DNA from: a candidate division FCPU426 bacterium
Lineage (GTDB): Bacteria; Oederibacteriota; PGYV01; Palsa-1178
Assembly (NCBI GenBank): GCA_963840035.1
Contig: CAWIXE010000002.1
Span: 992,099-1,056,098 of the forward strand
Length of the DNA: 64,000 bases
Direction: 5' to 3'
Shown here: positions 10,332 to 39,432 of the stretch, one piece after another
How positions within the stretch are numbered: position 1 is the first letter of the stretch
Layout: the number at the start of each line of letters is the position of its first letter
The notes under the pieces: generated by a model
The model's input: only the letters and a program-made list of their open reading frames with translations
Told to the model about the DNA's origin: nothing
The model's database searches: none
Program-made: the position numbers and the translations under genes

Positions 10332-10395
10332 GTAGAGACACAGCTTGCTGTGTCTCGCCTTTCAACGTCTGAGACGCAGCAAGCTGCGTCTCTAC
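10332..10395. repeat. 64-bp GTAGAGA...TCTCTAC double-hairpin repeat, copy A
   Basis: 'gtagagacacagcttgctgtgtctcgcctttcaacgtctgagacgcagcaagctgcgtctctac'; two adjacent perfect hairpins; ~97% identical to copy B. Confidence 0.8.
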
Positions 10396-10450
10396 AAAAA
10401 TCCGACTCATCAAGTAGTTCTTAGAATTGCCGTATTACATTTAAAAGCAA

Positions 10451-11147: not shown

Positions 11148-11211
11148 GTAGAGACACAGCTTGCTGTGTCTCGCCCTTCAACGTCTGAGACGCAGCAAGC
11201 CGCGTCTCTAC
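11148..11211. repeat. 64-bp GTAGAGA...TCTCTAC double-hairpin repeat, copy B
   Basis: Same sequence as 10332..10395 with 2 substitutions; lies between uvrA stop and RDD gene start. Confidence 0.8.
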
Positions 11212-11226
11212 AAAAAACAGAACAGG

Positions 11227-17629: not shown

Positions 17630-18481
17630 CTACCCAGCTTGAATTATCGTATTGTCAATCAACCTGGTTTTGCCCACATATATCGCTGCCGCGATTAAAG
17701 CGCTGCCGGTTATCTTTTCGAGCGGCTTTAATGTCTTAGCGTCGACTATCTCCACGTAATCTATCTCTATGTTTGATTCCTTTAGTTTCCTTCTTATTTC
17801 CTTCTTCAGCGTATCGCAGGACTTTTCCCCGAGTTCTATCATGCTTTCCGCCATCTGCAGCGACTTATAAAGCGCCGGCGCGGTATTGCGCTCCTCAGGC
17901 GTTAAGTACATGTTCCTGGAGCTCAGCGCGAGGCCGTCCTTTTCCCTGAAAATCGGGCACACCACAACCTCGGTCTGATAGTTCAGGTCGGCGGCCATCT
18001 TTGTCAGCACTACGGACTGCTGCGCGTCTTTCTGGCCCAGGTAAAGCCTGTCGGGTTTTACTATATTAAGGAGCTTAGTCACTATGGTAGTAACGCCCTT
18101 AAAATGTTCGGGCCTTGTAATGCCGCAAAGGCATTTTGTCATTTCATTTTCGAGCGCCACGTACGTGGCGTACCCTTCCGGGTACATCATGGCGTTGTCC
18201 GGCGTAAACACGCAGTCAACTTTTTTCGACGCCTTTAGCATTTTCAGGTCCTTCTTAATGGGCCTGGGATACTTTTCAAAATCCTCGCCGGCCCCGAACT
18301 GTGAGGGATTCACATAAATGCTTACTATGACCTTTTCATTTTGCTTATCAGCTGCCTCAACAAGCGACATGTGCCCTTCATGAAGCGCGCCCATAGTCGG
18401 GACGAACCCGATGGTATGGCTGCGTTTCTTCAGCTTTGCCGTGTATTCATGCATTTCACTTAAAGTACCGATAATTTTCAT
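17630..18481 (-). CDS. panC: pantoate--beta-alanine ligase
   Basis: 'GFVPTMGALHEGHMSLV' HIGH-type motif, 283 aa. Confidence 0.9.
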   Translation of the reverse strand: MKIIGTLSEMHEYTAKLKKRSHTIGFVPTMGALHEGHMSLVEAADKQNEKVIVSIYVNPSQFGAGEDFEKYPRPIKKDLKMLKASKKVDCVFTPDNAMMYPEGYATYVALENEMTKCLCGITRPEHFKGVTTIVTKLLNIVKPDRLYLGQKDAQQSVVLTKMAADLNYQTEVVVCPIFREKDGLALSSRNMYLTPEERNTAPALYKSLQMAESMIELGEKSCDTLKKEIRRKLKESNIEIDYVEIVDAKTLKPLEKITGSALIAAAIYVGKTRLIDNTIIQAG

Positions 18482-18518
18482 TTCGCTCCTTATAAAATTA
18501 CACTCATTTTCTCAGCCA

Positions 18519-18668
18519 GTCATTGCGATGAGGCGCCTATTACTTCGCCGACAAAGTCCTTCGACTTCGCTCAGGGCCATGAGCCTGTCGAATGGCAATC
18601 TGGCTGTTTTAGAACTTAAACCAGATTGCTTCGTCGCCATAAATCAAATACGGCTCCTCGCAATGACA
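18519..18668. repeat. ~150-bp palindromic MITE/REP-like intergenic element, copy 2
   Basis: TIRs 'gtcattgcgatgagg' / 'cctcgcaatgac'; shares identical 48-nt core with 2623..2780; sits between panC and panB. Confidence 0.75.
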
Positions 18669-20127: not shown

Positions 20128-20610
20128 TTACAGCTCTCCAATCTTTTTTACGGATTCGCTGAAATTGCCATTTTTTAAGAGTTCTTTTATTGTTAATTTA
20201 AGGGCCGGATGAACGAAATCCGCCGCTATTTCCGATAAAGGCTCAAGCACAAACCTTCTTGCCGCTATTTCAGGATGCGGAATTTTAAGTTTTTCGCTGT
20301 CTATAATTATATTCTTATAAAACAATATGTCAATATCTATAATACGCTGGCCCCACCTGTCCGACCTGACCCTTCCCATGTCTTTTTCAATCTTTTTGGC
20401 GGTTTCCAGCAGTTTTTCAGGGTCAAGCTGGGTTTCCACCTGCAGGCAGATATTGTTGTAATCAGGCTGGCTTTTGACGCCTACCGGCTCAGATTCATAT
20501 AAACCTGTCTTTTTTATTATGGTAACGCCATTCTTTTCAAGAAGATGAATAGCGGTACGCAGGTTGTCCGCCCTGCTGCCAATGTTGGTCCCGAGACAAA
20601 GGTATATCAT
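20128..20610 (-). CDS. folK: 2-amino-4-hydroxy-6-hydroxymethyldihydropteridine pyrophosphokinase (HPPK)
   Basis: 'IYLCLGTNIG...RIIDIDILFY' HPPK motifs, 160 aa. Confidence 0.85.
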   Translation of the reverse strand: MIYLCLGTNIGSRADNLRTAIHLLEKNGVTIIKKTGLYESEPVGVKSQPDYNNICLQVETQLDPEKLLETAKKIEKDMGRVRSDRWGQRIIDIDILFYKNIIIDSEKLKIPHPEIAARRFVLEPLSEIAADFVHPALKLTIKELLKNGNFSESVKKIGEL

Positions 20611-21770
20611 TACTTCTTCAGACCCACCTTTTTAAGCCTGTCTATGGCTTTCTGTATCTTATCCTCTTCCACTGTCAGCGCGATACGGAAATACCTGTCG
20701 CCCGAGAGGCCGAATCCGATGCCGGGCGTGATTACCATATCAGCTTCCTCAAGCACCTTTGTGCAGAATTCCATGGATGTGAAGCCTTCCGGCACTTTTA
20801 CCCAAAGATATAGCGTGCCTTTTGATTCAAGGACATCATAACCGAGCGTCTTTAAACCGGCTGTAAAAGCGGCTGCCCTGTTGCGGTAAAGCCCGCGTAT
20901 CTTAGCCGCTTCATCATCACAGTTTGCAAGCGTCCACGCGGCTGTTTCCTGTATGGCCGTAAATGTCCCCGAGTCCATGTTTTCCTTTACCTTGCCAAGC
21001 CCGTCTATGATCTTTTCCGCGCCCACGGCAAAGCCTATCCTCCATCCCGTCATGTTGTATGTTTTTGACATGGAGTAAAACTCGATTACGTGGTCCTTTG
21101 CCCCCTGTATCTGCAGCATGGAAATGGGCGGCGCCCCGAAATAAATTTCCGAATAGGGCGCGTCCTGGGCGATTATGAAATCGTACTTTTCCGCGTAAGA
21201 GAGCGCTTCCTCATAAAACTGATAATCAGCCATGGCTGATGTCGGGTTATTCGGATAGTTTAACCACATTATTTTTGTCTTTTTAAAGACATCTTCCGGT
21301 ATCAGGCTGAAATCAGGGAGAAAATTATTTTCCGCGATGAGCGGCATGACATGCGTCTTTCCTCCGGATAAAAGCGTGCCGGAAGTATAACCGGGATATC
21401 CGGGATCGGGCACAAGCACTATGTCGCCCGGATTAATGAACGCAAGCGGCAGGTGCGTGATACCGTCCTTTGCCCCTATCAGGCAGGCAACTTCCTTATC
21501 AGTGATGGCGACATCAAACCGCTTGTCCATCCAGTCAACAACAGCCTGCTTAAACTGCTTGCTTCCGCGGCCGATAGGATACTGGTGGTTCGACGCCTTT
21601 TGCACAGACTCTTTGAAGTTGTCAATGATGGCCTGCGGAGTCGGCCTGTCCGGGTCGCCTATGCCAAGGTCCAATATGTCCCTGCCCGCCTCTCGCGCGG
21701 CTTTTTTCTTCTTATCCAGTTCAACAAAGACATAGGGCGGTAAAGACTTTAGATTGTTTGAAAATTCCAT
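20610..21770 (-). CDS. dapL: class I PLP aminotransferase, LL-diaminopimelate aminotransferase-like
   Basis: N-terminus 'LPPYVFVELDKKK...GRDILDLGIGDPDRPTP' typical of DapL-type enzymes; located in a dapB-dapA-dapF-lysA cluster lacking dapD/dapC/dapE. Confidence 0.6.
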   Translation of the reverse strand: MEFSNNLKSLPPYVFVELDKKKKAAREAGRDILDLGIGDPDRPTPQAIIDNFKESVQKASNHQYPIGRGSKQFKQAVVDWMDKRFDVAITDKEVACLIGAKDGITHLPLAFINPGDIVLVPDPGYPGYTSGTLLSGGKTHVMPLIAENNFLPDFSLIPEDVFKKTKIMWLNYPNNPTSAMADYQFYEEALSYAEKYDFIIAQDAPYSEIYFGAPPISMLQIQGAKDHVIEFYSMSKTYNMTGWRIGFAVGAEKIIDGLGKVKENMDSGTFTAIQETAAWTLANCDDEAAKIRGLYRNRAAAFTAGLKTLGYDVLESKGTLYLWVKVPEGFTSMEFCTKVLEEADMVITPGIGFGLSGDRYFRIALTVEEDKIQKAIDRLKKVGLKK

Positions 21771-21868
21771 AACGTTCTCCTTCTTGGTAACCGCAACCTT
21801 TAGGCCGCGATACCGGGTATATTTTGTCCGCAGGCTGAAGCCTGCGACTACCGGAATTTAATGTATAA

Positions 21869-22630
21869 CTAGCGTACGTAGTTAATAAGTCGTCCTATTT
21901 CGCCTATTTCAACTTCCACTTTATCCCCGCGTTTCATGGGGCCAATCCCCGCTGGGGTTCCGGTGCTTATCACGTCTCCCCTGTTTAAGGTCATAACTTG
22001 CGATACAAAGCTCACTATTTTTCTCATTTTAAATATAAATTTCGACGTGTTCGAATCCTGCTTCAATTCTCCGTTTAAGTAAAGTTTTATATCCTGTTTG
22101 TCAGGATTTATATCTTTAACTATGTAAGGCCCGATCGGGGCGAATGTGTCGAACGACTTTGCCCTTGTCCACTGTCCGTCCACGCTCTGAAGGTCACGCG
22201 CGGTAATGTCGTTAAAGCACGTATACCCCAGGACGTTCATGTCCACCATGTCCTCGGAGATGTTTTTGCATGTGTTCTTGATTATTACCGCAAGCTCCGC
22301 CTCAAAATCCACGCGCGACGACATTTCCGGGTATATTATCTCGTCCATGTGGCCTATTAATGACGACGGCGGTTTCAAAAATATTACCGGTTCCTTTGGC
22401 TTGTCAGCTTTCATTTCCTTCGCGTGGTCGGAATAATTAAGCCCCACGCAAATAATCTTTGAAGGTTCGCATGGCGGCAGTATGCGCACCCTGCCGAACT
22501 CAATGACATTGGGCATGACCTTATACTGCGTATATATGTCGCCTTCTATATCGGTAATGTTCTTGTTATTATTAACTATACCCCACTGCGCCGGACTGCC
22601 TTCTATCGAATAACGCACGAACTTAAGCAT
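21869..22630 (-). CDS. fumarylacetoacetate hydrolase (FAH) family protein
   Basis: 'KIICVGLNYSDHAKEM...PVIFLKPPSSLIGH...FEAELAVIIK' FAH-fold motifs. Confidence 0.75.
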   Translation of the reverse strand: MLKFVRYSIEGSPAQWGIVNNNKNITDIEGDIYTQYKVMPNVIEFGRVRILPPCEPSKIICVGLNYSDHAKEMKADKPKEPVIFLKPPSSLIGHMDEIIYPEMSSRVDFEAELAVIIKNTCKNISEDMVDMNVLGYTCFNDITARDLQSVDGQWTRAKSFDTFAPIGPYIVKDINPDKQDIKLYLNGELKQDSNTSKFIFKMRKIVSFVSQVMTLNRGDVISTGTPAGIGPMKRGDKVEVEIGEIGRLINYVR

Positions 22631-26717: not shown

Positions 26718-27097
26718 TTTAAGCCTCCGTAAATGCGTAAGTGTATAGTTTAAGAAATATAACATAATTGCGTTTTTTAGTCAATTTATAGATATAATGG
26801 CTGATTCGGGATTCTGGATTCTAAATTCTGGATTAAAACATCCCAAAACAATTTTACGCTTTATTTTAAAGCAATTTCCGGAAAACGGCAGACGGGAAGC
26901 TGATTTTTGAATAAGCTAAACGGGCACATAGTCATGCTTCACCTCCTGGTATATCCCAATCAAGCCGGCCCGCCAGACCAAAAACCAACCGTCAATTATA
27001 TCGCCTCAGCATCTCACATTATCACTGCAGCCTCCAGCACACCCCGTCAGCTAATTCAAAAATCAGCTTCCCGCCTGCCGCTTCTACGTGGTCTGTC

Positions 27098-31860: not shown

Positions 31861-31972
31861 ATATTTCCTCCTTTTTCCGGGCGTTCGCCCTGTGTTTTGT
31901 GCCTTCACTGAGGAAGACACCAACCCGGGAAAAAGGTTCCATAATAAAACGCATTATTTATAAGGCCATTTG

Positions 31973-31997
31973 TAGGGACAGCGCTCCCGCGCTGTCC
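31973..31997. repeat. GC-rich hairpin, inverted duplicate of hairpin at 32062..32083
   Basis: 'tagggacagcgctcccgcgctgtcc', palindromic stem 'ggacagcgc'/'gcgctgtcc'. Confidence 0.7.
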
Positions 31998-32045
31998 GCG
32001 CGGGGATTATGTTATGATTTTTAAACGTGGCTATAAATTCAGGTG

Positions 32046-32083
32046 AAAAAAAAACGCCGGCGGACAGCGCGGGAGCGCTGTCC
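32046..32083 (-). terminator. Rho-independent terminator immediately after 32084..32602 gene
   Basis: Minus strand reads 'ggacagcgctcccgcgctgtcc' followed by 'gccggcg' and U9. Confidence 0.65.
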
Positions 32084-32602
32084 CTACTCTGCGTACACCC
32101 ATTCAAAATCTCTTATTTTACTATTCCAATAAGCAATCGCGCTGTCAGCGTGAAACCGTTTAAACATGATTACCGGCGTTTTAAAAGTCCGGCCCTGCCA
32201 TGTCCCGGTGAAACTTTCCAGGCTGAGGTTATCCGGTAAGGATTTATACTTTCCCAGGAAATATTTCCTGTAATTGGAGCCTTCGCTGATCAAAGCGATA
32301 GCCTGAGCGGAAAAATTCACAACAACCCCGTTTTCCACCACATCCGACCTGACAATAAAGGCATAATCCTTTATGCCGTCAGAGTTAAAATCCGTGTTTA
32401 CATATCCCGGGCTTTTTAGTGTTATCTTGTGTTTCTTTAAAAAGGTTAAAAAATCATCGCTTAAATCCTTTACAGTCATTGTCCTTGCGTCAGGGCCGAA
32501 TGACATGAGCACGCTTTCAAAATTAAGGCCTTCAATTGGCCAGATCTGTGAAAAACAGAAAACAGGAAGTAATATTAAAACAAGTACAAAGATTTTTTTC
32601 AT
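32084..32602 (-). CDS. secreted hypothetical protein
   Basis: 172 aa, signal peptide MKKIFVLVLILLPVFCFSQ; no recognised motif. Confidence 0.5.
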   Translation of the reverse strand: MKKIFVLVLILLPVFCFSQIWPIEGLNFESVLMSFGPDARTMTVKDLSDDFLTFLKKHKITLKSPGYVNTDFNSDGIKDYAFIVRSDVVENGVVVNFSAQAIALISEGSNYRKYFLGKYKSLPDNLSLESFTGTWQGRTFKTPVIMFKRFHADSAIAYWNSKIRDFEWVYAE

Positions 32603-34363: not shown

Positions 34364-35269
34364 TTATTTGACAACATCGGTCTTACCTATGAGCATATTA
34401 CCCAGAATCCTCAGATAGTCTTTTATCGTTATATAAACCGCGTTATCAGGCATAGGAACCTTGTGCGGAAACGGCCTTGAATATACGTTAACCAGCGTAT
34501 GGTGAAGCACGTGTTCCCTTGTGTCACCATGGGTAAAGAACAGGAATATTTTTTCCATAAACCCCTTGTCGCTTAAATTCCTGGTTTTAATGTTCCTGTT
34601 GTTATAATCCCCCTCAACTATCAGGTTGCCGTGCTCTATCATCTGCGAATGGTGCAGGAAGAAAGAATTGATCCAGATGGAAACCAGGTATGAAACAGCC
34701 ACAGCCCCGGCGCTGACGCCGAATACGAAATGCGCGGCTGTGCCAAGCCCTCCCAAAAACAGGGCTATCATCAGCAGTGTCAGCAGCGATGATGATCTCC
34801 TGTATTTAGCTTTATACTTAGGATGAGCGGGCAGAACAGCCGTTCCCATAAGCGAAATAAACGCTATGCCCAGGAAAATTTCGGCAATGTTATAAATGAT
34901 CTTAACTGCCCTGCTCTTTATCTCGCCGAGCGGGTGGAACTCAGTGTCATCCCATGTATTTACTTGGGAGTGATGAAATCCGTGAAGGATCTTATATATC
35001 TGGGGGTCTGTCAGAAGCATCCAGGAAAGGACATAATACAATTTTTCATTGTCAATATTTGTCACATATTTATGCCAGGTCTCATGCATAAGGTATCCAA
35101 GCCAGGTAAAAAGATATAGCCCGGGGAATATCATATAAGCAACAGACCACCATCCCGCTGCGGCAAAAACATAAGGAAGCGTAAAAAGATAAGCCGGCCA
35201 CGCAAACATGATGAAATAGAACTTCCAGGCCTGAGATTTAATTTCCTGTTCAGATATGTATTCAGCCAT
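34364..35269 (-). CDS. membrane fatty-acid desaturase family protein
   Basis: Histidine boxes 'HETWH', 'HGFHH', 'HHSQMIEH', 'HVLHH'. Confidence 0.75.
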   Translation of the reverse strand: MAEYISEQEIKSQAWKFYFIMFAWPAYLFTLPYVFAAAGWWSVAYMIFPGLYLFTWLGYLMHETWHKYVTNIDNEKLYYVLSWMLLTDPQIYKILHGFHHSQVNTWDDTEFHPLGEIKSRAVKIIYNIAEIFLGIAFISLMGTAVLPAHPKYKAKYRRSSSLLTLLMIALFLGGLGTAAHFVFGVSAGAVAVSYLVSIWINSFFLHHSQMIEHGNLIVEGDYNNRNIKTRNLSDKGFMEKIFLFFTHGDTREHVLHHTLVNVYSRPFPHKVPMPDNAVYITIKDYLRILGNMLIGKTDVVK

Positions 35270-35395
35270 ATAACCCTCCTATATGAGTAGATAACGACAT
35301 AATTATATATAGTAAAAGGTTTTTTTGCAATGTTTTTGAAGCAGGTTATTGACATCAGGACATGGCTTGCCACCCACTACTCACCACCCACTACC

Positions 35396-37470
35396 CTACC
35401 TCACACACACCAGCTTCTCAAACCCCTGCGCCTTTTCCCCTGTCTCTATCTGCGCTGTGACCGAGTATATAAAAGTCCCTGAAGCTATGTGTCTTTTTGC
35501 CCTGTTTTTTCCGTCCCAGTGGAAGTTATTATGGCCGGCTTTCGCGTTTATGCCGCATTCTTCTATGACTATCTCGCCTGATACGGTAAACACCCTCACG
35601 CACACCTCAGCGTCCCTTGAAAGCCAGTAAACTATGTTTGTGTCCTCGGCAAAAGGGTCGTTATAATTGCCTTTTAGTATAAGCTGTAACCGCGGAGTTA
35701 CCGGGGTAACAGTTGCAGACGCCTGCGGTGTCGAAGTTACTGTGCGGGTCGGTGTTGCAGTAATTGTCTTTGTAAATGTCAATGTTGGTGTAATTGTCCT
35801 TGTTATTGTTTTTGTCGGGGTAAATGTCATGGTCTGAGTTTTTGTAATCGTATCTGAAACAGTCATTGTCGGCGTTATGCTGAAAGTTGTTGTCATGGTC
35901 TGCGACGGTGTCAGTGTTTGCGTGACAGAATTAGTCAGGGTGACTGTCCGGGTCGGCAGAAGCGTTTCTGTGTGTGTTACGGTATAACTCGGGGTCTCAG
36001 TCAAGGTATCCCCGGGCGTCTGCGTCTGTGTATAAGTCGGGGTCCTGGTAAAAGTCGGCGAATTCGGACTTGTTGCGGTCCTTGTCGCTGTTCTTGTTCC
36101 GGTCGGAGTGCGCGTTGGCGTTACTGTAGCGGTAGAAGTGGATACGAAATCCGTCATCCCTGACCCGCCCGGATAGCCATATCCATCCTGGTCGTCAAAA
36201 CCGTACACGTTGACGCCTATTGGAAGCGGTGAAATAATGTTGTGGCTCCCGACCCCGACGCTTACGCGCGTGGCCGAAAAACCGCTGGATGCAATAGAAA
36301 TAAAACTACCCGCAGGTATAACCGAACCGTCAACTGATAATAGCCCGGCTGCGGCGTCAGGGGCAGTGATATTTAAATAATTCGCAGAGAAACCGGATTG
36401 TGGCGTCCCAACAGTGTAATTATCCAGATACTGCTCGACAGGTTCTATAATCATCATGAACGGGTCGCCGGTTGTGGAATCAAACATGGTGCTGTTTGAA
36501 TACTGCATAACAAGCACCCGGTTGTTCGAAGTTATCATTCCCGCCCCGCTGATTAACGCCTCAAAAAACGCGCCTTTGACCATAGGCGACGGGTTTAAAA
36601 GAGCCCCGTCAAGGTACAGGTATGTGCCGTTTTGTGACGCCATAATTCTGTAGGTATCGGTCCCTGACCTTCCCGCAAGCGGAACGATAATAAATTGTTT
36701 CCCCCAGCTCGATGTCGGGGCAGCTGTTCCACAAGGTAATTGCAGTAGTTGGATGACACCGGGATATCCGCGCAGATATGGCCCCCGAAAACAGCAATAC
36801 GCCTGTCAGAATCCACGGTTGTTCCGGTTAAATCCTCACTGCCGGGATTGTCATCTCGCAGTAAATAGACCTGCCCTTTATTCAGAATTACGTCATACGG
36901 GACATTCTGGATCCTGCCGCCTATCGTGCAGTTAAGCCTGATTGTCACCGTGGTGTTATCTTCGACAGCCACTACGGCAAATTCACTTCCTACCGGGTTA
37001 TTTACGCCGCCGTTATTGAATGAAAGAATTATATGGTTGGTGCCAAGCGCTTCCACAGGAAGGCCCAAAAACGCGTCTGTAATGACAGGGCTGTGCGAAT
37101 AACCGTATACGGTTACCGGATCAGCCGAGGTTACATGTATACCCCTCACCGAAACAACGTCGCTGTCAAAAACGTCGCTGTTCCATGGCAGGTCCACATA
37201 GGTTATAGCGCCGGCAGTCACATTTACATTTTTGTTAAACGTCAGGACCGGCGATAAGGATATGGTCATGTTCACGGTTGCTGTCGTATTGGTCTGTGAA
37301 GTGATGAGTATTTGCTTTGCAGGCGATATTCCCGAACTGTAAGGCGAATAATATGACCCCGGGATGCAAATCCAGAAATCAGTCCCTTCGCTGGTGGGTG
37401 AAGAAAATGCATAAAACGGCATTATGAAAAGATATGCCATTACTGTCAAAACCTTAATTTTTAATTTCAT
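35396..37470 (-). pseudogene. frameshifted gene for secreted IgGFc-binding-like domain protein with Thr-rich linker and T9SS-type C-terminal domain
   Basis: ORFs 36595..37470 and 35396..36643 are one gene: the '...NYCNYLVEQLP' frame continues as 'PTSSWGKQFIIVPLAGRSGTDTYRIMASQNG...' in the next frame; shift at G4 run 36717..36720. Confidence 0.6.
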
Positions 37471-37558
37471 TCCCGCTCCAGTAAGGATGGACTTATTTCT
37501 CTATAAATATATCGGAAATATGGGAGAAACCTTGAATTGAATTAATGTTTTAAACACC

Positions 37559-37725
37559 GGTAGCCCGCAACCTTCGAGATGCTATTGCTAGCCTTGGCGG
37601 GCAAACATTAAATCAGCGCAATTCATCTAATCTTGCCGTGTTAATCACGGCTGGTTGCGAAAGGCAGGTTCTCGCCCGCCTGACACCGGCAGCCAGCCTT
37701 GCGCAACCTGAAGGTTGCGGCTACC
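37559..37725. other. GC-rich ~170-bp intergenic element with nested inverted repeats (candidate structured RNA or MITE)
   Basis: Closing stem 'ggtagcccgcaaccttc'/'gaaggttgcggctacc'; internal 'ggcgggc'/'gcccgcc' and three 'gcaacc'/'ggttgc' pairs. Confidence 0.3.
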
Positions 37726-37729
37726 AGAA

Positions 37730-38800
37730 CTATAAAATACCTTTCTTTAATTCTTCCATATAAACTTTCTTAGCCGTTTTTCCCGACTTATATATGGCCT
37801 CGACCATCCACTGCGTCTCAAGCCCGGCATCCTCGTCAACGTCCACAGGCGTGTTATTTATAATCGCTTCGTAAAAACGCCTTATCTCCACCGAATGGCA
37901 ATAGCCCCAGTATTCTTTCCATCCGCTTCCATAATCAATGAACTCGCTCTTTTTAGGTTTGGCTGAAAGATGGCTTCCAAAAAGTTTCTTCTCATTAAAA
38001 TAAACGTCTGCCTGGTCCTTCACTATTTTTACTTTGCCTTTTTCGCAGTGTATTTCCATGACCACGTCATCGTCGTATGAATAATGGCATATGGTATAGA
38101 AGTTGATGTACGAACCGTTCTTAAACATCACAACGCCGGCCGCGTCGTCTTCTACCTGTACTTTTACATGCATCCTGTTGGCGATGGACGCGTCTACCCA
38201 GTCTATTTCAGAGTTAAATACGTAACGTAGAATGTCCAATGAATGGATTGCCTGATCTATAATAACCCCGCCGCCCTCTTTATCCCATGTCCCCTTCCAG
38301 TCGCTTTTAAGATAATACTCGTCAGGCTTGCACCATGAAAGTATCAGCTTTGCCGAGAGTATCTTTCCCAGTTTTCCTGACTCAATTGTCTTTTTAGCCA
38401 GCTGCGTGGAGGGGTTATACCTGTTCTGGAACGAAATGGCAAACTTTACCTTCTTTTCTTTTATCTTTTTATAAAGCGCCACAGCGTCAGCTGCGCTTGT
38501 GGTCATGGGTTTTTCCTGGTAAATGTGGACGCCGCGTTCAGCGGCGTATTCAGTCATTTCTTTGTGCAGGTAGTGCGGGGTACACACATGTACCACGTCT
38601 GGTTTTACCTGGTCAATCATGCTTTTATAATTGGCGAATGTTTCACAGCCGTATTTATTCCCCGCGGCCAGAAGCCTGTCCTGTTTTATGTCACAAACAG
38701 CCTTTAATTCGGCAATATCCTTACATGCCTGACGCACAGATTCCGCGTGCATCGGAAAAATAGTTCCGCATCCTATGATCGCAACCTTTAACTTAGCCAT
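37730..38800 (-). CDS. Gfo/Idh/MocA family oxidoreductase
   Basis: Start set at MAKLKVAIIGCG (RBS GGAGGG); Rossmann motif and Gfo/Idh/MocA C-terminal domain. Confidence 0.8.
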   Translation of the reverse strand: MAKLKVAIIGCGTIFPMHAESVRQACKDIAELKAVCDIKQDRLLAAGNKYGCETFANYKSMIDQVKPDVVHVCTPHYLHKEMTEYAAERGVHIYQEKPMTTSAADAVALYKKIKEKKVKFAISFQNRYNPSTQLAKKTIESGKLGKILSAKLILSWCKPDEYYLKSDWKGTWDKEGGGVIIDQAIHSLDILRYVFNSEIDWVDASIANRMHVKVQVEDDAAGVVMFKNGSYINFYTICHYSYDDDVVMEIHCEKGKVKIVKDQADVYFNEKKLFGSHLSAKPKKSEFIDYGSGWKEYWGYCHSVEIRRFYEAIINNTPVDVDEDAGLETQWMVEAIYKSGKTAKKVYMEELKKGIL

Positions 38801-38812
38801 ACCTAACCCTCC

Positions 38813-38857
38813 ATTTGTCTTATTTGTCTTATTTGTCTTATTTGTCCTATTTGTCCT
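38813..38857. repeat. 9-bp tandem repeat x5 immediately upstream of oxidoreductase RBS
   Basis: 'atttgtctt' x3 then 'atttgtcct' x2. Confidence 0.85.
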
Positions 38858-38865
38858 ATTAGCCA

Positions 38866-39432
38866 TTACTCAAAAACGTGCGTCAGCTGCACTCCGGCAA
38901 AAATACCGCTCAAATCAATATACCCCGGATCAAAAGGCGCGTAGTTAAAGCCGGCTTTGTAATACCTGTATCCGACTTCCAACCCGGCATAAAACTGCCC
39001 CTTTACCTGATAAAGAAACGCTTCTTTAACCGCAAATTCAAAACCTCCGCCTTTTTCATCATTTACATCTATTCTATACCTTGCAATTCCATATCCGGCC
39101 GACACTGTTGACCAGAGCATATATTTTTTTTCATCAAATAACACCATATAGCCAAGGTCCACCGAAGGTATCGGCGAGATGATTCTCATGTTATGGCCTG
39201 ACAAATCCAAATCCTCAATGCCCAAATGATTATAAGCAAACCCCGCGCTGAAACCATTTTCCCAAACCCAGCCCAACCCTCCGTTTGGCACGGCAACCCT
39301 TCCGGATTTTATCCCGAAATCTTTATTTTCCCCGTACATCTCCTGATCATATCCGAGAGTAAGGTATAATCCGGCATTTATAATCGCCGACATAGCAGCA
39401 ACAAAAAAAAGTATCAGCACTGTTCTTTTCAT
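38866..39432 (-). CDS. small outer-membrane beta-barrel-type protein
   Basis: Signal peptide MKRTVLILFFVAAMSAIINA; Gly/Tyr-rich alternating strands; C-terminal 'LTHVFE'. Confidence 0.5.
   Translation of the reverse strand: MKRTVLILFFVAAMSAIINAGLYLTLGYDQEMYGENKDFGIKSGRVAVPNGGLGWVWENGFSAGFAYNHLGIEDLDLSGHNMRIISPIPSVDLGYMVLFDEKKYMLWSTVSAGYGIARYRIDVNDEKGGGFEFAVKEAFLYQVKGQFYAGLEVGYRYYKAGFNYAPFDPGYIDLSGIFAGVQLTHVFE

Follow-up and report, generated by a model that had tools for sequence, protein, structure and literature searches.

The question raised by this locus is whether a short, strongly folded and GC-rich island between two genes is a regulatory RNA or a repeat element that has settled there. 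The island lies in a 64,000-nucleotide stretch of DNA (hereafter the window) from a candidate division FCPU426 bacterium, and had been noted in a preliminary description as a segment of some 170 bp, closed by a 16-bp stem with nested complementary blocks, free of coding potential and situated 5' of a surface-protein gene, for which either a structured RNA (riboswitch or sRNA) or a non-autonomous element was proposed. The physical part of this account was borne out. The island spans 37559–37725 (167 nt) and has a GC content of 0.563, compared with 0.341 in the remaining intergenic DNA (37471–37558) and 0.458 in the whole window. It is intergenic between 37470 and 37730, and both flanking genes lie on the minus strand, which is also the strand on which the element is read; it begins 4 nt past the stop codon of a GFO/IDH/MocA oxidoreductase gene (37730–38866) and ends 88 nt short of the ATG at 37470 that opens a surface-protein ORF (36595–37470). 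No meaningful ORF was found within it, the sole frame being one of 41 aa with a GTG start. Its closing stem of 16/17 bp is formed by two arms that pair with one C bulged:

37559–37575, left arm, 17 nt, GGTAGCCCGCAACCTTC
37710–37725, right arm, 16 nt, GAAGGTTGCGGCTACC

Folding of the island gave values well beyond those of dinucleotide shuffles, whether as plus-strand RNA (−77.6 kcal/mol, z = −5.55), as minus-strand RNA (−84.5 kcal/mol, z = −5.61) or as minus-strand DNA (−45.9 kcal/mol, z = −6.43), and in each of the three cases none of 200 shuffles equalled it. So stable a fold on the coding strand of the flanking genes, located 88 nt upstream of the surface-protein ATG, speaks for a cis-regulatory RNA (a riboswitch or leader in the 5' untranslated region of this gene) or for a free-standing small RNA. 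Against this, most of the fold signal is contributed by the closing stem and by a single 7-mer present in four copies (CGCAACC at 37566 and 37702, GGTTGCG at 37653 and 37713), while the interior (37576–37701) folded alone reached only z = −1.88, with 7 of 200 shuffles as good, and is not significantly structured. Compared by blastn with the remainder of the window and with some 250 fetched loci, the interior gave no significant match, and an exact 21-mer spanning a small hairpin at 37635–37651 had no match in the JGI metagenome collection. An Rfam scan, which the preliminary description had suggested as a check, returned no match in the whole window at gathering thresholds, and for the element itself permissive thresholds yielded noise, the best being Pseudomon-groES at 21 bits against a cut-off of 50.

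A different reading emerges from the ends of the element, both of which carry an outward-facing GTAG (37724–37721 on the minus strand, 37560–37563 on the plus strand) followed by the half-stem CGCAACC. We consider it very probable that the element is a doublet of inverted GTAG-tagged REPs, which would make it a REPIN-like relic, itself non-autonomous, of a REP/RAYT system. On this view most of the nested complementary blocks noted earlier are repeated REP half-stems, to which the small hairpin in the interior is added. The parts are as follows, with the basis of each assignment in brackets:

37559..37725, minus strand, whole element, very probably two inverted GTAG-tagged REP units with GTAG outward, an HH dimer, REPIN-like (sequence, folding, family architecture)
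37702..37724, minus strand, intact REP unit of tag GTAGC, 7-bp stem CGCAACC/GGTTGCG and 4-nt loop TTCA (exact 23-mer matches)
37560..37583, plus strand, second REP unit, inverted, GTAGC-C-CGCAACC-TTCG-AGATGCT (comparison with the family consensus)
37653..37659, plus strand, GGTTGCG, possible missing 3' half-stem of the second unit (constrained fold)
37660..37701, no strand assigned, GC-rich 42-nt spacer with a hairpin of its own (AAGGC...GCCTT) in the loop-insertion parse (MFE structures)
37635..37651, no strand assigned, small perfect interior hairpin GCCGTG-TTAAT-CACGGC (present in all predicted folds)

The 23-mer of the intact unit reads GTAGCCGCAACCTTCAGGTTGCG. In the second unit the tag and 5' half-stem are kept, with one extra C, and the adjacent 3' half-stem is decayed (four of seven bases match). 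Two parses of the element fit. In the first, the intact unit (37702–37724, minus) would face a decayed one (37560–37583, plus) about 120 nt away; in the second, two intact units would be separated by the 42-nt structured spacer, the second of them occupying 37560–37659 and carrying an 80-nt insertion in its loop. A fold constrained to the latter arrangement has an energy of −68.5 kcal/mol, compared with −80.3 kcal/mol for the MFE fold, in which the two outer units pair with each other into the long stem. Loop insertions of this type, in which GC-rich hairpins occupy the loop of one unit, are also seen in other members of the family (L024, L025, L062, L078, L090, L093 and L120, where L numbers designate fetched loci). 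The availability of two topologies to the four 7-mers appears superficially switch-like and would thus suit a riboswitch, but such alternative pairing is due to the presence of two identical inverted hairpins.

The distribution of the intact unit was determined by scanning one genome per species for its 23-mer. Exact matches occur in at least 116 stretches from at least about 75 assemblies, with labels from some 17 phylum-level groups, these labels being those of the records and a few of them likely wrong (e.g., ‘Klebsiella sp.’). Assemblies with listed matches are all metagenome-assembled or single-cell genomes, and the labels among the matches listed include Ignavibacteria, Verrucomicrobiota, Planctomycetota (anammox lineages), Aerophobetes, Zixibacteria, Chloroflexi, Desulfobacterota and other ‘delta’ groups, Clostridia, Omnitrophica, Elusimicrobia, Nitrospirae, Aminicenantes, Chlorobi, Desantisbacteria, Ratteibacteria and FCPU426. 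Several copies per genome are present in places, as in eight stretches of JAGGXI01 or in the six matches within a single 8-kb locus (L017). Flanks and base composition are wholly different between loci, indicating that the copies stand independently in these genomes. That the REP units which give the element its structure adjoin unrelated genes in so many phyla is a further point against a leader or small RNA belonging to this locus. A degenerate form of the unit, GTAGCCGCANNCTTYAGNNTGCG, was additionally observed in 36 stretches of IMG/VR contigs classed as viral (L132–L167), some of which hold several copies.

All units share one plan, in which GTAGC precedes a hairpin with a 7-bp stem and a TTYA loop. 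Among the matches listed, the common form is a doublet with GTAG outward and a spacer of about 8–170 nt, typically GTAGC, a hairpin CGCAACC TTCA GGTTGCG, the spacer, a hairpin CGCAGGC TAAA GCCTGCG and finally GCTAC. Also among the matches listed, 79 doublets in which GTAGCCGC and GCGGCTAC face outward measure 43–214 nt (median 73, 90th percentile 134) and have variable interiors; at 167 nt the window element is at the long end of this range, with just two of the 79 longer. The partner unit is either the identical hairpin or a compensatory variant (AACC/GGTT, AGGC/GCCT, AAGC/GCTT, GACC/GGTC, AGAC/GTCT). Covariation was analysed in 84 distinct sequences picked by tag and loop alone (GTAG[CT]N7TTYAN7), with the query 23-mer excluded. 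Stem pairing in this set is bimodal, 45 of the 84 having six or seven of seven Watson-Crick pairs and 32 having three or fewer; paired cells amount to 69.6%, compared with 30–39% for slid partners, and the covariation score of 0.50, against 0.11–0.20, was reached by none of 500 shuffles. Family units avoid coding frames, 26% of them falling in a stop-free frame of at least 600 nt compared with 79% of random positions.

Repeats of other kinds were weighed against this family pattern. The shuffle results, together with the identical 23-mers found elsewhere, rule out a chance inverted repeat. In being small and having a long inverted repeat at its ends the element is reminiscent of a MITE, and irregular arrays of units in L017 and L028 at first resembled integron cassettes or a CRISPR. 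For these arrays the CRISPR reading was dropped because their spacing is irregular (33 to >1000 nt) and their orientation mixed, and the integron attC reading because of the same irregular spacing and orientation and the lack of an integrase. More generally, all-against-all clustering of 1298 ORFs revealed no gene recurring beside the at least 116 listed copies, be it an integrase, TnpB or any other. GTAG next to a short hairpin marks the unit as a REP, and it is a RAYT gene with which the family is associated. We therefore regard it as almost inconceivable that the element is a chance inverted repeat, an attC site, a CRISPR remnant, an IS200/IS605 end or a MITE with terminal inverted repeats.

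The association with RAYT genes was brought to light by a motif search of ORFs in the fetched loci, which identified two Y1-transposase-like proteins. One is encoded in L077 by a Y1_Tnp-like ORF whose stop codon falls within the first GTAGCC of a doublet containing the exact window unit; the gene for the other, in L120, is flanked by a stem variant (tag GTAGC, stem GGAAACC/GGTTTCC, loop TTTA). A profile search with these two proteins retrieved 1067 relatives, many of which, where the sources give names, are called ‘REP-associated tyrosine transposase’ or ‘REP element-mobilizing transposase RayT’. One such RayT gene, P0159 (L123, L125), is bracketed by GTAGCCGCAACCTTTAGGTTGCG, whose first base lies 89 nt ahead of the ATG and which leaves a 66-nt gap, and by CGCAACCTAAAGGTTGCGGCTAC beyond the stop codon, and the L123 unit equals the window unit with one loop change. 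Genes P0144, P0154, P0184, P0193 and P0182 are flanked by stem variants that share tag and loop with the window unit. The full REPtron layout, with one unit ~20–90 nt before the RAYT ATG and an inverted unit ~20–70 nt past the stop codon, is found in L123, L174, L178, L182, L183 and L184.

Scanning of JGI metagenomes with an 11-sequence RAYT alignment yielded 80 loci (L172–L251), of which 53 were examined. At least one unit (GT[AG]G, 7-bp stem, 4-nt loop) is located within 350 nt in 32 of the 53, where by our own calculation about two would be expected by chance; the loop is TTYA in 29 of these 32, and as a rule the gene has a unit on either side, the GTAG ends pointing outward. The exact window unit is found beside RAYT genes in two of these metagenomic loci (L172, L177). 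REP stem variants follow the RAYT clades while the GTAG[CT] tag and TTYA loop remain constant: RAYTs at least ~37% identical to P0159 have stems CGCAGGC, CGCAACC or CGCAAGC, and more distant ones GGAAGGC, GCAGGGC or GCAAGGC. The alignment retains the HUH motif, the WQ motif and the tyrosine motif Y-x3-NPVR, and RAYTs of this clade are compact, at about 149–168 aa. A motif search of the 64-kb window found no RAYT-like ORF, and no RAYT remnant was detected in the element interior. Weak tblastn hits to RAYTs at 18266–18511 (E = 0.2) were rejected, since the ORF at 17630–18481 reads as a pantoate-beta-alanine ligase by its HEGH motif and sequence.

The element thus displays the hallmarks of a REP, namely a GTAG tag, a 7-bp stem-loop, an inverted doublet and an extragenic site, and a cognate RAYT flanked by the same REP exists in other genomes (L077, L123/L125, L172, L177). 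Weighing against this identification are the decay or interruption of one of the two units, an unusually long internal segment of about 120 nt, the occurrence of just two family members in 64 kb and the lack of a RAYT-like ORF from the window. Placement of the window copy by a RAYT is a plausible extension from known systems, and the steps can be sketched by analogy with E. coli TnpA_REP. The unit would fold into a hairpin on single-stranded DNA, and the RAYT, an HUH/Y1 tyrosine nuclease, would bind the foot of this hairpin plus the 5' GTAG, then cut and rejoin nearby single-stranded DNA so that units are copied or rearranged. The REPtron is the autonomous form of this architecture, and the window element has the REPtron topology with non-coding DNA replacing the gene. 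In E. coli, the REP hairpin is bound by TnpA_REP only when accompanied by the 5' GTAG (Messing et al. 2012, PMC3479197); the enzyme works on single-stranded DNA, where it cuts at a CT dinucleotide and is able to transfer strands (PMC3479197).

Comparison with known systems places the element within an established kind while marking its peculiarities. In GTAG REPs, HH dimers occur whose spacers measure 20–100 bp and are in some cases structured, and the repeats are found downstream of genes and on either side of RAYT genes (Di Nocera, De Gregorio & Rocco 2013, PMC3733652); such dimers are also named REPINs (Bertels & Rainey 2011, PMC3116915). Like them, the element has a stem-loop with an unpaired GTAG foot, inverted units with GTAG outward and a spacer that may have structure of its own, and its family is extragenic, mostly found after genes, present as homo- and heterodimers with compensatory stems and associated with RAYTs. 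It differs in that one unit is decayed and in that its spacer is ~120 nt (42 nt if an 80-nt loop insertion is assumed) rather than the typical published 20–100 bp. With the REPtron it shares the outward-GTAG bracket, but the interior of a REPtron is coding, whereas the element, with neither a coding interior nor a detectable RAYT remnant, corresponds to its non-autonomous counterpart. The E. coli REP/BIME and TnpA_REP system likewise combines a 5' GTAG with a hairpin, and its HUH, WQ and Y-x3-NPVR motifs recur in RAYTs of this clade. Yet the E. coli hairpin is imperfect, with a bulge that its enzyme needs, whereas here the sequence is another and the 7-bp stem perfect, and the RAYTs are short (149–168 aa) compared with TnpA_REP. 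Finally, subterminal hairpins of IS200/IS605 elements resemble these units in having a hairpin with a 4-nt guide at its foot and a Y1 HUH transposase acting on single-stranded DNA. In contrast, IS200/IS605 hairpins flank multi-copy transposase (and TnpB) genes and their left and right ends differ, while here units are dispersed alone and the transposase relatives are annotated as RAYT and embedded among housekeeping genes.

The window holds further repeats of the same general type. A second member of the element's family and three doublets belonging to two other GTAG families are located as follows:

21787..21851, plus strand, second member of the element's REP family: GTAACCGCAACCTTTAGGCCGCG (decayed unit), 19 nt, CGCAGGCTGAAGCCTGCGACTAC (intact CGCAGGC-type unit)
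10332–10405, outward-GTAG doublet of another REP family
11148–11221, outward-GTAG doublet of another REP family
31972–32087, outward-GTAG doublet of another REP family

With two members of the element's family and three doublets of the other two, the window points to a genome rich in REP-type repeats. Two of the three doublets are 95% alike and are built of units GTAG AGACACAGC TT GCTGTGTCT; in the other, whose units read GTAG GGACAGCGC TCCC GCGCTGTCC, 28-nt arms with 100% complementarity enclose a 60-nt AT-rich spacer. The window also contains two copies (~89–90% alike, at 2622–2781 and 18541–18668) of a ~150-nt repeat bounded by long terminal inverted repeats, TGTCATTGCGAGGAG ... CTCCTCGCAATGACA, which resemble a MITE or TIR-type repeat, and at 26883–27083 a pair of 42-nt inverted arms (86% complementary) around a 117-nt interior.

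A REP origin leaves room for a role of the element in the host's RNA, and it may be asked whether a REP-derived sequence, no longer mobile, now serves to stabilise the oxidoreductase mRNA, to attenuate read-through or to slow termination at the stop codon. E. coli REPs shield upstream mRNA from 3' exonucleases, and those within ~15 nt of a stop codon reduce translation. The position of the element in a same-strand gene row, 4 nt past a stop codon, is favourable to such a role. So is the placement of family doublets between ORFs, 34 being tandem, 12 convergent and 7 divergent, so that 46 of 53 lie between tandem or convergent ORFs; the same bias is reported by Di Nocera et al., who suggest that many REPs are RNA elements (PMC3733652). 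On the other hand, the tail after the element's stem reads CGGTGTTTAAAAC and lacks the U-run of an intrinsic terminator (CGGUGUUUAAAAC), and a scan for promoters and terminators found nothing at the element, its one promoter-like site being inside the downstream ORF. Moreover, the second family member (21787–21851) is situated between minus-strand ORFs 21869–22630 and 20610–21770, and the orientation of the two copies relative to their genes is opposite, which argues against a strand-specific role. We thus find a dedicated host RNA function unlikely, and it is in any case an added function compatible with REP identity and not an alternative origin. When transcribed, the doublet would presumably act like other REP stem-loops, and from its location 4 nt past the oxidoreductase stop codon it might stabilise that mRNA at the 3' end or form a partial barrier before the surface-protein gene.

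Further evidence comes from the same locus in related genomes. The exact oxidoreductase protein is found elsewhere only in a Logan contig of the same strain (L001), in which the intergenic region is 100% identical. In a relative whose oxidoreductase is 82% identical (L002), the gene is followed by an AT-rich 219-nt spacer without the element, and the downstream gene differs from that of the window. A third locus (L003) has another gene directly after the oxidoreductase, again without the element. In L006 (GCA_003142155.1, 76% identical) a fatty-acid desaturase gene directly follows the oxidoreductase, as compared at L006 5077–5115, and the element is missing. In the corresponding part of the window (34364–37725) the desaturase gene lies beyond the surface-protein gene, so that the REP doublet and the surface-protein gene separate it from the oxidoreductase. 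Since L006 has the oxidoreductase–desaturase adjacency, both the element and the surface-protein gene are extra in the window relative to L006, and this extra DNA puts the REP doublet at the edge of an insertion or deletion. The whole neighbourhood differs in the relatives, so that they offer no clean empty-site comparison for an insertion.

Absence from the syntenic site in relatives with oxidoreductases 82% and 76% identical goes against a conserved leader, as does the empty Rfam result, and a riboswitch, leader or small RNA is in our view highly improbable. Of the two possibilities raised in the preliminary description, the structured RNA is therefore unsupported and the non-autonomous element upheld in the form of a REP doublet; the finding that its ends match a known kind of repeat, a GTAG-tagged REP that flanks RAYT genes, is one that the description itself had named as a ground for refutation.

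Two observations concern the flanking genes themselves. The surface-protein gene (35396–37470, minus strand), described earlier as frameshifted, is indeed split in the window into ORFs of 291 and 415 aa by one C in a homopolymer at ~36716. The homopolymer counts four C residues in the window (C4) and five (C5) in L001, the same strain's Logan assembly, where the gene is intact and encodes a 691-aa IgGFc-binding-type protein; the difference is either an assembly error or a variable homopolymer. The oxidoreductase ORF, at 378 aa compared with 353–358 aa in homologues, starts with five copies of a 9-nt tandem repeat, ATTTGTCTT (38813–38857), encoding NRTNKTNKTN. This excess in length suggests that translation may actually begin at the internal MAKLKV methionine, which would place the repeat in upstream DNA.

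In kind the element is known, belonging with GTAG-tagged REP dimers, REPINs and REPtrons, of which it is a new member with a long interior. As to the family, no description of it was found in searchable full text: the unit (stem CGCAACC, loop TTCA) gave as a string only unrelated primer matches in literature full text, and it is absent from the text and supplements of a REP survey (PMC3733652). For annotation, the consequence is that a riboswitch or sRNA label would be wrong here, the apparent structured RNA being a repeat element; should it influence the oxidoreductase gene or the surface-protein gene, the influence would be that of REP stem-loops in general. The usual description of REPs is that they are species-specific (PMC6006769), whereas the unit of this element is identical in many phyla (at least ~17 labels). 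The patchy distribution of RAYTs has been ascribed to horizontal transfer followed by loss (PMC6006769). We propose, tentatively and at slightly less than even confidence, that there exists a REP/RAYT system whose recognition hairpin is conserved at 23 of 23 positions in at least ~75 uncultured genomes with ~17 phylum labels, and whose stem variants track RAYT clades. If true, this would imply either ongoing transfer of REPtrons between phyla or an unusually rigid protein–DNA recognition code, and would be at odds with the notion of REPs as species-specific and of REPIN/RAYT pairs as vertically inherited. A 23-nt hairpin and its small RAYT constitute a simple protein–DNA pair open to testing, and the copies assembled here a data set on the question whether REP/RAYT systems move between phyla.
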